DNA from: Thermoanaerobaculia bacterium
Lineage (GTDB): Bacteria; Acidobacteriota; Thermoanaerobaculia; UBA5066
Direction of reading: 5' to 3'
DNA: 64,000 nucleotides
Assembly: GCA_044229475.1 (NCBI GenBank)
Contig: JBGASW010000007.1
Location: forward strand, 62,054 to 126,053
Of the stretch, positions 39,984 through 48,565 are shown one piece after another (position 1 is the stretch's first letter; every line of letters starts with the position of its first letter). Below the pieces are notes generated by a model. It ran no database searches. It saw only the letters and a program-made list of their open reading frames with translations, and had not been told where the DNA came from. The translations under genes and the position numbers were made by a program.

Positions 39984-40020
39984 ACGAACGCGCGGGCCTC
40001 CCGCGCGTTCTTTCGTTCTT
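39984..40020 (+). terminator. Rho-independent terminator after the sigma-54 regulator gene
   Basis: Perfect hairpin GAACGCGCGGG-CCTC-CCGCGCGTTC followed by TTTCGTTCTT. Confidence 0.6.
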
Positions 40021-45202: not shown

Positions 45203-45231
45203 TCCAACACCCGAAAAGGAGCTCTTTCCCC

Positions 45232-46083
45232 ATGCGCGTTCCGGTCACCCTGATGGCTCTCGTTCTCCTCGCCGGCTGCGGCAAGCAGCAGCCCGCGCTC
45301 GACGTGAAGACCGCGGCGCCCGCAAAGGCTCCCGCGGCGTCCGCGTCCGCCCCCGCGTCCGGCGTCATGCCCGCCGCGCCCGAAGCGGCGCTCGTCACCG
45401 TCTCCGGCACCGTCCTCGAGACGATGGACGCGGCCGAGTACACCTACATGCGCCTGAAGACCGCGACCGGCGAGACTTGGGCCGCGATCAACAAGACGAA
45501 GGTCGCGAAGGGCGACGCCGTCACGGTCACGAACGCGATGGTCATGGACGGCTTCCAGAGCAAGACGCTCAATCGCACGTTCGACCACATCCTCTTCGGC
45601 GTGCTCGCGACGCCCGGCGCCCCTGCGGCCGCGGCTCCCGCCGCACCCGCCGCGCCGATGGCGTCCGGCCACCAGCCGGCGGTCGCCCCCGCGCCCGCGA
45701 CGCAGGAGCAGATGGCCGCCCAGCACGGGCAGGCCGCGGGCGGCCCCGCGGACGCGCCGGACGTGAAGGTCCCGAAGGCCGAAGGGCAGAACGCGAAGAC
45801 GGTCGCGGAGCTCTGGGCGCAGCGCGCCTCGCTCAAGGGCAAGGAAGTGGCCGTGAAGGCCAAGATCGTGAAGGTCACGAACAGCGTCATGGGGAAGAAC
45901 TGGCTCCACGTGCGCGACGGCTCGGGCTCGAAGGCCGCGAAGGACAACGACCTCACGGTCACGACCGACGTGGTCGCGAAGGTGGGCGACGTCGTGACCG
46001 TGACCGGCACGGTCTCCGTCGACAAGGACTTCGGGGCCGGGTACGCGTACCCCGTCATCATCGAAAACGCGAAGCTGAAGTAG
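45232..46083 (+). CDS. Hypothetical lipoprotein with two tandem beta-domains
   Basis: Signal + lipobox LLAGCG; internal duplication (GDAVTVTNAMV / GDVVTVTGTVSV); SD AAAAGGAG. Confidence 0.5.
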   Translation: MRVPVTLMALVLLAGCGKQQPALDVKTAAPAKAPAASASAPASGVMPAAPEAALVTVSGTVLETMDAAEYTYMRLKTATGETWAAINKTKVAKGDAVTVTNAMVMDGFQSKTLNRTFDHILFGVLATPGAPAAAAPAAPAAPMASGHQPAVAPAPATQEQMAAQHGQAAGGPADAPDVKVPKAEGQNAKTVAELWAQRASLKGKEVAVKAKIVKVTNSVMGKNWLHVRDGSGSKAAKDNDLTVTTDVVAKVGDVVTVTGTVSVDKDFGAGYAYPVIIENAKLK

Positions 46084-46093
46084 TACTCTTCCG

Positions 46094-46183
46094 ATGCCGA
46101 TGCACGCGACCTTCGCCGCCGCCTTCGTCCCCACAGCCGGGTATTTCTATACGCCGGACAGGAGGGGCGCGGCCGACTGAGTC
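46094..46183 (+). CDS. Putative attenuator leader peptide MPMHATFAAAFVPTAGYFYTPDRRGAAD (Phe/Tyr-rich)
   Basis: 29-codon ORF with 3 Phe + 2 Tyr codons (GYFY cluster) immediately upstream of an intrinsic terminator and of an aromatic-amino-acid biosynthesis gene. Confidence 0.4.
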
Positions 46184-46209
46184 GCGTATCGACCCCGGGT
46201 GATTCCCGA

Positions 46210-46250
46210 GGCCCCCCTCCGAAGCGACGGAGGGGGGCCTTTTCATTTTG
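46210..46250 (+). terminator. Intrinsic terminator/attenuator hairpin GGCCCCCCTCCG-AAGCGA-CGGAGGGGGGCC + TTTTCATTTTG
   Basis: 12-bp perfect GC stem with U-tract, 20 nt upstream of the PDT-DAHPS-CM start; alternative pairing of leader segment AGGAGGGGCGCGGCC with left arm possible. Confidence 0.55.
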
Positions 46251-46269
46251 ACTTCGCGAGGAGGCTCCC

Positions 46270-48159
46270 ATGGACGGATCGACCCCCGAAGGCTCCACCC
46301 CAAACGTCCCGACGCCGCGCGCGGGCTACCAGGGCGAGCCCGGCTCGTTCTCGGCGCGCGCGGCCGCGCGCGCAGGCCGGCCCGTCGCGCATGCGACGTT
46401 CGACCGGGTCCTCAAGGCGCTGCTCGGAGGAGAAGTCGACGTCGCCGTGCTCCCCGCGGCCACGCACGGCGCGGGCCCGGTCGTCGAGCCTCTCGAGGCG
46501 CTCGCGCGCGTCCTCGAGGGCGGCGGCGTCGCGCTCGAGGTCCGCGGCGAGATCGCGATCCCGGTCCGCCTCGTCCTCGCGGCGCCGCCGGGCGTCGCCG
46601 AGGAGGACGTCCGGGAGATCCACTCCCAGCCGCCCGTCCTCCGGCAGTGCGCGCGCCTCCTCGCGCGGCGCGACGCCGTGCCCGTCGAGACGCACGACAC
46701 GGCGTTCGCGGCCCGGCGCGTCGCCGAGCTCGGCGGGCCGCGCGCGGCCGTGTGCTCGGAGGAGGCCGCGCTCGAAGCGGGCCTCGTGGTCCTCGAAGAG
46801 GACGTGTCGGACATGAAGCCGAACGCGACGCGCTTCTGGACGGTCGCGCTCCGCTCGGAGGCCGAGCCCACGGTGCGCGCGCTCTTCTTCTCCGGCGCGC
46901 GCCTCGCCGCGGCCCTGCACGACTCGGGGGCCGAGATCCTCATGCTCGCGGGCCGGCCCGGCGCGGCCGTGGGCGGCTTCGCGACCGTCCCGGCTTCCGC
47001 GCTCGCGAAGGCGGCGGGCCTCGCGCCGAAGGCGGGCGAGACGCTCGTGTGGCTCGGGCCCGCGCCCGATCACGTCCCGCCGCCGCGCCTCCGGGAAGCG
47101 CCGCGCGCGACCGAGGTGAAAGGGCCGACCGTCGTCGCGGCCGGCGTCTTCGCCGTCGGCGGCGGGCTCCGCGCAGTGATCGCGGGCCCGTGCGCCGTCG
47201 AGTCGCCCGAGCAGGTGATGCGCCTCGCCCGGGCGGTCGCGCGCGCCGGGGCGACGGCGCTCCGGGGCGGCGTCTTCAAGCCACGCACGTCTCCGGCCGC
47301 GTTCCAGGGACACGGCCTCGAGGCGCTGCGCTGGCTGCGCGACGCGGGCGACGCCGTCGACCTGCCGATCGTCACGGAAGTCATGGCGCCGGCGCAGGTC
47401 GAACCCGTCGCCCGGCTCGCGGACGTCCTCCAGATCGGTGCGCGCAACTGCCAGAACTACGACCTCCTGAAGGAAGCCGGCGCCGCGGGGCGGCCCGTGA
47501 TGCTCAAGCGCGGCTTCGGGACGACGGTGGAGGAGTGGCTCTCGGCGGCCGAGTACATCCTCGCGGCGGGGTGCAGGGACGTCCTCCTCTGCGAGCGCGG
47601 GATCCGGACGTTCGAGCGCGCGACGCGCGGCACGCTGGACCTCGGGGGCCTCCTCGCGGCGCGTTCGCTCACGCACCTGCCGCTCCTCGCGGACCCGTCG
47701 CATGCGGCGGGGAGGAAGGAGCTCGTGCCGGGCCTCGCGCGCGCGGCGTGGGGCGCGGGTGTGGACGGCCTCATGATCGAGGTCCACGACGCGCCCGAGT
47801 CGGCTCTCTGCGACGGGCCGCAGGCGCTCCTGCCCGACGACCTCGAGATGCTCCTCGACGAGTTCGGCCTCCTTCCAGGGCGGACGGGCTCGGTCGAGCG
47901 CGTGAGGCGCGCCATCGACTCCGTGGACGCCTCGATCGCCGCGCTCGCGGCGCGCCGCCTCGAGCTCTGCCGCCGCGTCGCGGAGGTGAAGAAGGCGACC
48001 GGGCGGCCGATCCGCGACGAGGCGCGCGAGGCCACCGTGCGCGCGCGCTTCGCGGAGAGCCTCGGAAAGGACGCGACGAAGGCGGCGGGCCTCGCGGACG
48101 CGCTCATCGCGCTCGGCCTCGAGGCCGAGGGCTGGGAGGGCGACGCTACTCGCCGATGA
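46270..48159 (+). CDS. Tri-domain fusion: prephenate dehydratase (catalytic domain) - DAHP synthase (type I-beta) - chorismate mutase (AroQ)
   Basis: N-term colinear with PheA PDT domain ([11 protein letters not shown] ... TRFWTV); middle colinear with Thermotoga-type DAHPS ([11 protein letters not shown] ... KPRTSP ... QIGARNCQN ... LKRGF ... [10 protein letters not shown] ... DPSH); C-term AroQ CM helix ([26 protein letters not shown]). Confidence 0.75.
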
Positions 48160-48565
48160 TCTTGATCAGGACGCGCTTCGGGCGGCAGCCGTCCCACTCG
48201 CCGTAGAAGATCCGCTCCCAGGTGCCGAAGTCGAGGCGGCCGTTCGTGATCGCGACGACCGCCTCACGCCCCATGAGCTGCCGCTTGACGTGCGCGTCCG
48301 CGTTGTCCTCGCCCGTGTCGTTGTGCCGCCATTGCCTCACGGGATCGTGCGGGACGAGCGTCTCGAAGAAGCGCTCGTAGTCCGCGTGCAATCCGCTCTC
48401 GTCGTCGTTCACGAAGACCGACGCCGTGATGTGCATCGGGTTCACGAGGCAGAGTCCCTCCTTCACGCCGCTCTCCTTCACGGCGGCCTCGACCTCGGGC
48501 GTGATGTTCACGAACCCGATCCGGGCCGGGACGTTCAACGTGAGGACCTTGCGATGGGACTTCAC
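48146..48565 (-). CDS. YjbQ/UPF0047-family protein (secondary thiamine-phosphate synthase-like)
   Basis: 139 aa; GTG start; pattern [14 protein letters not shown] ... [10 protein letters not shown]; overlaps kinase gene stop. Confidence 0.7.

Follow-up and report, generated by a model that had tools for sequence, protein, structure and literature searches.

What do a short reading frame and a GC-rich hairpin do directly in front of a gene for aromatic amino acid biosynthesis? The question is raised by a locus of a Thermoanaerobaculia bacterium (GCA_044229475.1, contig JBGASW010000007.1, positions 62,054-126,053 of the forward strand), and this whole stretch of 64,000 nucleotides (nt), which was the DNA analysed, is called the window below. 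The gene encodes a fusion of prephenate dehydratase (PDT), a type-I (type-I-beta) DAHP synthase (DAHPS) and a C-terminal chorismate mutase (CM), and the 186-nt intergenic stretch before it is bounded by the TAG of the upstream gene (46081-46083) and the ATG of the fusion gene (46270). The first-pass annotation of this DNA had proposed attenuation of the classic pheA/trp/his type, with a 29-codon leader open reading frame (ORF) whose Phe and Tyr codons act as the sensor and with a perfect 12-bp terminator hairpin. Comparison with related loci and folding of the RNA supported this logic. The element is, in our judgement, quite probably a ribosome-mediated transcription attenuator that senses charged tRNA-Tyr and tRNA-Phe and controls the single fusion gene.

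The features of the intergenic stretch are collected in Table 1. The annotated hairpin with its T-tract was confirmed, and folding of the hairpin alone gave -32.0 kcal/mol. Its left arm GGCCCCCCTCCG and right arm CGGAGGGGGGCC formed 12 perfect pairs, and the stem grew to 14 pairs with a GA/UU extension (46208-46241). The T-tract TTTTCATTTT followed, and the end of the terminator was located about 17 nt before the Shine-Dalgarno (SD) sequence of the fusion gene. The whole intergenic RNA folded far better than its shuffles (z = -4.9). Terminators composed of a hairpin and a T-tract were rare in this DNA, with two only in the whole 64 kb; the other one, at 39986-40010 on both strands, was symmetric (GAACGCGCGGG...CCCGCGCGTTC) and had a T-rich tail on either strand, so that it may be bidirectional. 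The leader ORF was also present, with its three Phe and two Tyr codons and the TAT-TTC-TAT run (46142-46150) where they had been annotated. The frame as first read was translated as MPMHATFAAAFVPTAGYFYTPDRRGAAD, 28 amino acids followed by a stop.

To see how widely this arrangement occurs, one genome per species was scanned for relatives of the fusion protein, which gave 66 loci. The loci with the three-domain gene were all labelled as Acidobacteriota, Thermoanaerobaculia or Holophagales metagenome-assembled genomes (MAGs). The same element preceded the fusion gene in 29 other loci, making 30 sequences together with the window. All 30 members, that is every leader-bearing locus, contained the terminator between the ORF and the gene, and it was present in every minimum-energy fold of the family. 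A DNA profile built from the 29 relatives without the window gave a single match in the window, at 46078-46250 (E = 1.3e-33), and a profile from the 21 most distant loci still matched it (E = 1.2e-23). A metagenome search with the scaffold of regions 2, 3 and 4, which are described below, revealed at least four further members, each before the same fusion gene. Among the 120 metagenome matches listed, four were true members and the rest were unrelated G-rich and C-rich stretches; no scaffold with other codons or with another gene was found among them. All 34 instances of the element (the window, 29 loci and at least four metagenome contigs) were located before the fusion gene. Since the upstream neighbour differed among the loci, with at least three unrelated genes at this position, the element belongs to the fusion gene and not to the upstream gene.

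The comparison also showed where the element is missing. In 14 loci (L005, L006, L009-L019 and L038), a homologue of the gene upstream of the element in the window abutted the fusion gene, without leader or terminator. The homologue in these leaderless loci bore a conserved C-terminal extension (...TKEPASTRADASRP), and L038 retained a terminator-like remnant, GGCGGAGGGGAGCCTTTTCGTTTTCG. From these 14 loci and the remnant, it follows that the attenuator was gained or lost within the class.

The leader ORF was analysed next to its relatives. An ORF of 25-31 codons, with its start and stop kept, was found in 29 of the 30 loci. The exception was L063, in which the leader was off frame by one base; the fusion gene on this long-read MAG contig was split into at least eight frame-shifted tblastn pieces, and the off-frame leader is probably due to assembly indel errors rather than to a pseudogene. 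ATG was the start codon in 16 of the 29 ORFs and GTG in the other 13, and the stop codons TAG, TAA and TGA all occurred at one aligned place. One Tyr codon, at 46148-46150 in the window, was invariant and served as an “anchor” for the alignment. The distance from the start to the anchor was 45, 48, 51, 57 or 60 nt, and that from the anchor to the stop was 30, 33 or 36 nt, all of them multiples of three. With such exchanges of starts and stops and such lengths, the leader ORF appears to behave like a translated frame. Openness alone says little in DNA so rich in GC, as frame +2 was likewise open in 29 of 29 leaders. One detail of the first-pass annotation had to be corrected. The conserved start was the second ATG, at 46100, which gives 26 codons (MHATFAAAFVPTAGYFYTPDRRGAAD) and is located 10 nt past the TAnnnT box; this spacing was found in 23 of the 29 ORFs (range 7-11 nt). 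The first ATG, at 46094, was found in the window only and not in its relatives.

The codon content of the leaders pointed to the end products of the pathway. In five neighbouring genes of the window, 2.8% of the codons were for Phe and 1.3% for Tyr, and none of the 25 Tyr codons was TAT. About 1.1 aromatic codons would be expected in 28, and five were observed, two of which were TAT. When the leaders were compared with the adjacent fusion genes, with related sequences counted as independent, the strongest enrichment of any residue was that of Tyr (8.0-fold), followed by that of Phe (4.9-fold), and no enrichment of Trp was found. The rare synonymous codons were also favoured: TAT accounted for 40 of 45 Tyr codons in the leaders against 13 of 133 in the adjacent genes, and TTT for 21 of 76 Phe codons against 18 of 364. 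Of all TTY triplets in the leaders, 72% were in frame. The position of these codons was as restricted as their choice. In the eleven codons from -10 to 0 relative to the anchor, 105 of 319 positions (33%) were aromatic, whereas past the anchor there were four in 270 positions (1.5%) and none in the first few codons. The aromatic codons of the leaders were essentially confined to positions -13 to 0. The anchor itself was at position 0 in 29 of 29 ORFs, in nearly all cases as the rare TAT. Compared with pheL or hisL, the leaders contained few sensing codons. The proposal that Phe and Tyr codons form the sensor was supported in this way and became more precise, in that conservation is strongest at a single Tyr codon, upstream of which the set of Phe codons varies. 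In addition, a TTTAC pentamer was kept at the nucleotide level 6-9 codons before the anchor in most clades outside that of the window (for example L026:2780-2790, L008, L022 and L037); it consists of the rare Phe codon TTT and the start of a Thr codon, and it may have been kept for the rare codon, for the F-T dipeptide or for an RNA contact.

Four boxes followed one another in constant order in the RNA: region 1, region 2, region 3 (CCCCCCTCC) and region 4 (GGAGGGGGG). When RNAalifold was applied to the full 30-sequence MAFFT alignment, the terminator was the only structure recovered, and the leader part aligned poorly. Because of this poor alignment and of shifts in the register of hairpin P1, folding was carried out for each sequence and in windows anchored on the Tyr codon. 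The full-length folds contained the region 1:2 helix, with P1 nested inside it, plus the terminator, and in each of the 30 nascent transcripts, region 2 was paired with the pyrimidine-rich stretch before it. A different structure appeared when the RNA up to position +10 of the Tyr codon was masked and region 4 was absent. Under these conditions, all 30 sequences showed pairing between regions 2 and 3 (mean z = -2.2). In the window, GGAGGGG and GGCC of region 2 paired with the left arm of the terminator (46210-46220) with -31.7 kcal/mol, against -32.0 kcal/mol for the terminator. The first-pass annotation had proposed this pairing, and the two mutually exclusive folds were found here in every member of the family. 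When a ribosome footprint was placed over the stop codon of the window, the terminator formed.

The helices differed in how they were conserved. GGAGGGG of region 2 was kept across the family while the peptide encoded over it varied (RRG, GRG, GGG or RER). Because the box was kept although the reading frame over it differs between clades, region 2 is conserved as RNA and not as peptide. All 30 sequences had a P1-type hairpin, the tip of which was no more than about 3 nt away from the anchor Tyr codon (mean z = -1.9). The sequence and register of its stem varied by clade, with a register shift of 1-3 nt, and compensatory changes were seen in two of nine pairs, in one subset of eight sequences from one clade. 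The stop codon was in or beside the loop of the small hairpin P2 in most members, and the stability of this hairpin was weak (mean z = -0.9). In other clades, GGGC at the site of the small pre-terminator hairpin paired with GCCC of the left arm in the antiterminated fold.

The start of region 2 was close to the place where the leading edge of a ribosome stalled at the anchor would be expected. Counted from the first base of the anchor Tyr codon, region 2 started after 11-15 nt, and a ribosome that has this codon in its A site extends to about +12. Roughly speaking, a ribosome stalled at any codon beyond the anchor would thus no longer leave region 2 free. Later stalls would cover region 2, which fits the abrupt end of the aromatic codons at the anchor. 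A ribosome at the stop codon, 30 nt past the anchor, would cover the 3' part of region 2 and beyond.

Table 1. Features of the putative attenuator and its fusion gene, in positions of the window
Feature	Position	Strand	Details
TAnnnT box TACTCT, probable -10 element	46084-46089	+	Alignment; spacing to start
Leader ORF as first read	46094-46180	+	ATG CCG ATG CAC ... TGA; 28 codons and stop
Putative sensing stretch	46112-46150	+	Phe TTC at 46112, 46124 and 46145; Tyr TAT at 46142 and 46148
Region 1 (TCCCCAC)	46128-46134	+	Pyrimidine-rich; would pair with region 2 in untranslated RNA (putative anti-antiterminator); from minimum-energy folds
Hairpin P1, CCGGGTAT / TTCT / ATAC(G)CCGG	46137-46157	+	Anchor Tyr at tip; nested inside region 1:2
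Region 2	46161-46174	+	GGAGGGG 46161-46167 and GGCC 46171-46174; core same as region 4
Small stop-codon hairpin CGAC / TGA / GTCG	46174-46184	+	Stop codon 46178-46180 in loop
Small pre-terminator hairpin CGGG / TGATT / CCCG	46196-46208	+	Per-sequence folds
Intrinsic terminator	46208-46249	+	Region 3 46210-46221; loop 46222-46227; region 4 46228-46239; T-tract 46240-46249
Fusion gene with SD sequence	46258-48159	+	SD GAGGAGG 46258-46264; ATG 46270; Pfam and NCBIfam matches

From these parts, the following mechanism can be proposed. The transcript would start at the leader ORF or a few nt before it. With no ribosome on the leader, region 1 and P1 would hold region 2, the 3:4 terminator would form, and transcription would end at the T-tract ahead of the fusion gene. 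When Phe and Tyr are plentiful, the ribosome would reach the stop codon and cover the 3' part of region 2 and its surroundings, and the terminator would form again. When charged tRNA-Tyr or tRNA-Phe is scarce, the ribosome would stall within a stretch of about ten codons, the last of them the rare TAT (46148) at the tip of P1. By then it would have opened region 1 together with the 5' arm of P1, and its leading edge would be just short of region 2. The free region 2 would pair with region 3 once this is made, so that the terminator is blocked and RNA polymerase enters the fusion gene.

Several observations weigh against this model, some on the folds and codons and others on how the leader is transcribed and translated. 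The region 1:2 helix was no more stable than composition-matched shuffles of the upstream part (mean z = +0.2), and regions 2, 3 and 4 were nearly invariant, which made covariation uninformative on the key helices. At equilibrium, the full transcript favoured the terminator fold (-51.1 against -31.4 kcal/mol), so the model needs kinetic control, as in the classical cases. The statistics of codon enrichment treat related sequences as independent and their p-values are overstated, although the pattern holds in every clade. The sensing codons were few, with one invariant Tyr, zero to four Phe and sometimes a second Tyr; L021 contained only one Phe and one Tyr, and L020 three Tyr and no Phe. The fixed use of TAT instead of TAC could also stem from a constraint on the RNA and not from the rarity of the codon. 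Finally, no member had an SD sequence before the leader ORF. Translation without it would have to be leaderless or nearly so; in the window, coupling to the upstream gene would be a further possibility.

The sequences upstream of the leader are a further difficulty. A TTGAC box was found 7 nt upstream of TAnnnT in 28 of the 30 members, and the window was without it, as confirmed by an independent assembly (6 mismatches in 4890 nt). In its longer form, CTTGAC(A/G)-N7-TAnnnT, the block preceded the leader start by about 30 nt in L001-L045 (L004:2811-2829 is an example) and was absent from 46060-46083 of the window. TTGAC-N7-TAnnnT occurred 32 times in about 500 kb of loci, 28 times within the element and four times in unrelated low-GC loci; ordinary TTGAC-N17-TAnnnT also existed in the same DNA (13 sites). 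A distance of only 7 nt is no sigma-70 spacing, and TTGAC...TAnnnT was rejected as a sigma-70 promoter because of this spacer. In the relatives, no -10-like hexamer was found 16-19 nt past TTGAC and no -35-like hexamer 17 nt before TAnnnT. Sigma-54, sigma-32, sigma-B-type and TyrR-box patterns were compared with the block by eye, and none fitted. The DNA before TAnnnT was purine-rich and that after it pyrimidine-rich, with a small hairpin possible in some loci. The fixed TAnnnT-N10-start spacing suggests that the 5' untranslated region (UTR) is very short or absent, but the 10 nt between TAnnnT and the start exceed the 6-7 nt that are usual when a start is strictly leaderless. Transcripts of the Corynebacterium glutamicum aroR leader, in work attributed to Neshat et al. 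in 2014, reportedly have neither a 5' UTR nor an SD sequence. In the window, TCGAAA-N17-TACTCT is a weak sigma-70-like candidate, and read-through from the upstream gene may provide for transcription of the leader and perhaps for its translation.

Some of these difficulties would suit other explanations. In a translation-independent RNA switch, a ligand, a protein or uncharged tRNA-Tyr would bind P1 with its UAU tip, as in a riboswitch or a miniature T-box, and the ORF would be incidental. The missing SD sequence agrees with such a switch, and so does the UAU fixed at the tip of the hairpin even where it is in an unpaired loop and TAC is the normal codon; the alternative helices would serve it equally well. 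We nevertheless consider it quite unlikely, since ATG and GTG starts are exchanged, three different stop codons occupy one place and the lengths are multiples of three, while the in-frame enrichment of Phe and the abrupt end of the aromatic codons after the anchor would have no explanation. The RNA also matched neither the T-box nor any other Rfam family (E <= 10 in the window, gathering score in 18 relatives), and inspection of the folds showed no conserved UGGN-type bulge in the antiterminator. Because of the invariant UAU at the tip of P1, the missing SD sequence and the odd TTGAC-N7-TAnnnT block, the status of Tyr might still be read in another way, through contact between the anticodon of uncharged tRNA-Tyr and the codon, in a minimal T-box-like manner outside the known family, or through peptide- or ligand-assisted arrest; the chance of this appears small. 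The nascent peptide has also been considered as the sensor, either by a TnaC-like arrest in response to free Tyr or Phe or as a peptide with a function of its own. The leaders share a motif, G-[Y/G]-x-Y-[T/S/P]-P: of the 29, 23 have Gly at -3, all have Tyr at 0 and 21 have Pro at +2. An F-T pair is frequent upstream of the anchor. The conserved residues, however, fall on the P1 stem (GCCGG/CCGGC) and on region 2, and a constraint on the RNA explains them; the changing peptide over the constant RNA box of region 2 and the poor conservation of the remaining peptide make a peptide sensor very unlikely.

Two further explanations leave out a competition between RNA structures. If control were exerted on the DNA, the AT-rich palindrome GTATTTCTATAC (46141-46152), the TTGAC-N7-TAnnnT block or both would be operators for a repressor such as a TyrR-like protein, and the terminator would be constitutive or unrelated. 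Such a palindrome is conspicuous in DNA of about 70% G+C, and the block is conserved without normal promoter spacing. The palindrome, however, changes its sequence and register by clade while its pairing is kept, which is the behaviour of an RNA hairpin and not of a protein site. Operators would also leave the ORF, the triplet of regions 2, 3 and 4 and the codon positions unexplained, and the window works without TTGAC, all of which makes this explanation highly improbable. In the last one, there would be no regulatory link at all: the hairpin would merely terminate the upstream gene (45220-46083), and the ORF would be a chance frame in GC-rich DNA. The window contained no other terminator between the upstream gene and the fusion gene, and an open frame, as noted above, says little by itself when frame +2 is open in every leader too. 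The element, however, accompanies the fusion gene behind unrelated upstream genes and is absent from the 14 loci in which the same upstream gene abuts the fusion gene. The short distance between the end of the terminator and the SD sequence has no space for a separate promoter, and the start, stop, length and codon content of the ORF are conserved. This reading, which has next to no probability left, was rejected as contradicted by the comparative data. Ribosome-mediated attenuation is the reading that we retain.

Attenuators of this class are known from other phyla. By analogy, the nearest systems appear to be E. coli pheL-pheA and C. glutamicum aroR-aroF, the latter as the closest functional parallel. 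Like pheL-pheA (Rfam Phe_leader, of the class of trpL, hisL, leuL and thrL), the element has a short leader ORF with codons for the end product, four pairing regions from which either the antiterminator or the terminator can form but not both, and a terminator just ahead of a gene with chorismate mutase and prephenate dehydratase activities. There was no similarity in sequence or by covariance model. The pheL leader of E. coli contains a run of seven Phe in 15 codons, in contrast to the 25-31 codons here with scattered Phe and one invariant Tyr. The element also differs from pheL-pheA in that it has no SD sequence, in that region 2 is inside the ORF and upstream of the stop, in that the enzyme has a DAHP synthase domain as well, and in that it belongs to Acidobacteriota and not to Gammaproteobacteria. 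The aroR leader contains Phe-Tyr-Phe, is located upstream of the DAHP synthase gene aroF and responds to Phe limitation, according to summaries of the work of Neshat et al. 2014 (PMC11802643; PMC7356990). The window resembles it in a tight mixed cluster, Tyr-Phe-Tyr in place of Phe-Tyr-Phe, before a DAHP synthase gene in a high-GC organism; the resemblance is a functional one. In contrast to the element, in which the Tyr codon is invariant, only Phe limitation is reported to act on aroR (PMC11802643), and the phylum and the three-domain gene are also different. A leader coded for Phe and Tyr fits the pathway, as the fusion enzyme makes the common aromatic precursor and serves the Phe branch. 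Such leaders are known for E. coli pheA and C. glutamicum aroF (PMC11802643).

Other systems share single properties with the element. In mycobacteria, leaderless sensory polycysteine short ORFs without an SD sequence start with AUG or GUG (bioRxiv 10.1101/834739). They are similar in that an SD-less sensory ORF is located at the 5' end of the mRNA and a stall at the cognate codons remodels the RNA downstream, but they free a sequestered ribosome-binding site and so control translation, whereas the terminator and T-tract here point to control of transcription; the amino acid sensed is also another one. T-box leaders such as that of Bacillus tyrS likewise present a Tyr codon at the tip of a hairpin upstream of competing antiterminator and terminator. 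Unlike them, the element is only about 150 nt long and has neither a covariance-model match nor a T-box sequence, and its conserved ORF features point to ribosomes instead of tRNA binding. The T-box model gave no match in the window even at E <= 10, nor in 18 relatives at gathering score. In the Rfam search of 45800-46500 at E <= 10, only hairpin-only matches of 11-27 bits to unrelated models were obtained. At gathering score, no family was found in the whole window or in 18 related loci, and none of the leader families (Phe_leader, Trp_leader, His_leader, Leu_leader, Thr_leader and others) matched. In Actinobacteria, an earlier comparative study found no RNA elements ahead of genes for Phe or Tyr (PMC1262725), and in a survey hardly any of Acidobacteriota's predicted attenuators have an assigned function (PMC2965389). 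In the literature, no description was found of this element or family, nor of such a one for Acidobacteriota.

The regulated gene combines two parts of the pathway in one polypeptide. Its coding sequence (46270-48159) encodes 629 amino acids with the domains PDT, DAHP_synth_1 and CM_2, as assigned by Pfam and NCBIfam, and its product covers the entry step to the common aromatic precursor and the Phe branch. Two-domain fusions of DAHPS-CM and CM-PDT are known, and we know of no reported example of the three-domain PDT-DAHPS-CM fusion. This layout was common to more than 110 protein clusters with 64-100% identity, and the organisms named for them were all Acidobacteria/Acidobacteriota or Thermoanaerobaculia. 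A YjbQ-family gene on the opposite strand (48146-48565 in the window; L187:3377-3796) shared about 14 nt with the 3' end of the fusion gene; owing to this antisense overlap, the fusion gene is monocistronic, without space for a terminator of its own. On the other side, the upstream gene (45220-46083, + strand) encodes a protein of about 287 amino acids with a lipoprotein-like N-terminus (…LLAGCGKQ…) and Ala/Pro-rich linkers. It had no Pfam or NCBIfam match, yet it adjoins the fusion gene in many genomes.

The mechanism of attenuation itself is textbook knowledge and would not surprise specialists. Its distinctive features here are a rare Tyr codon, single and invariant, which is displayed at a hairpin tip, the missing SD sequence and the unexplained 5' block. 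If the proposed reading is right, leader-peptide attenuation, which is best known from Proteobacteria and Actinobacteria, would be extended to Acidobacteriota. The clean family of at least 34 members could be used for RNA-family libraries and for the annotation of these mostly uncultured soil and sediment bacteria. Because essentially one rare codon at the tip of the hairpin within the 1:2 helix may do the sensing, the element would offer a compact test of the minimum number of codons. For the organisms themselves, the element indicates Tyr and Phe as the signals that would control a three-domain enzyme in which the entry step of the pathway is joined with its Phe branch.

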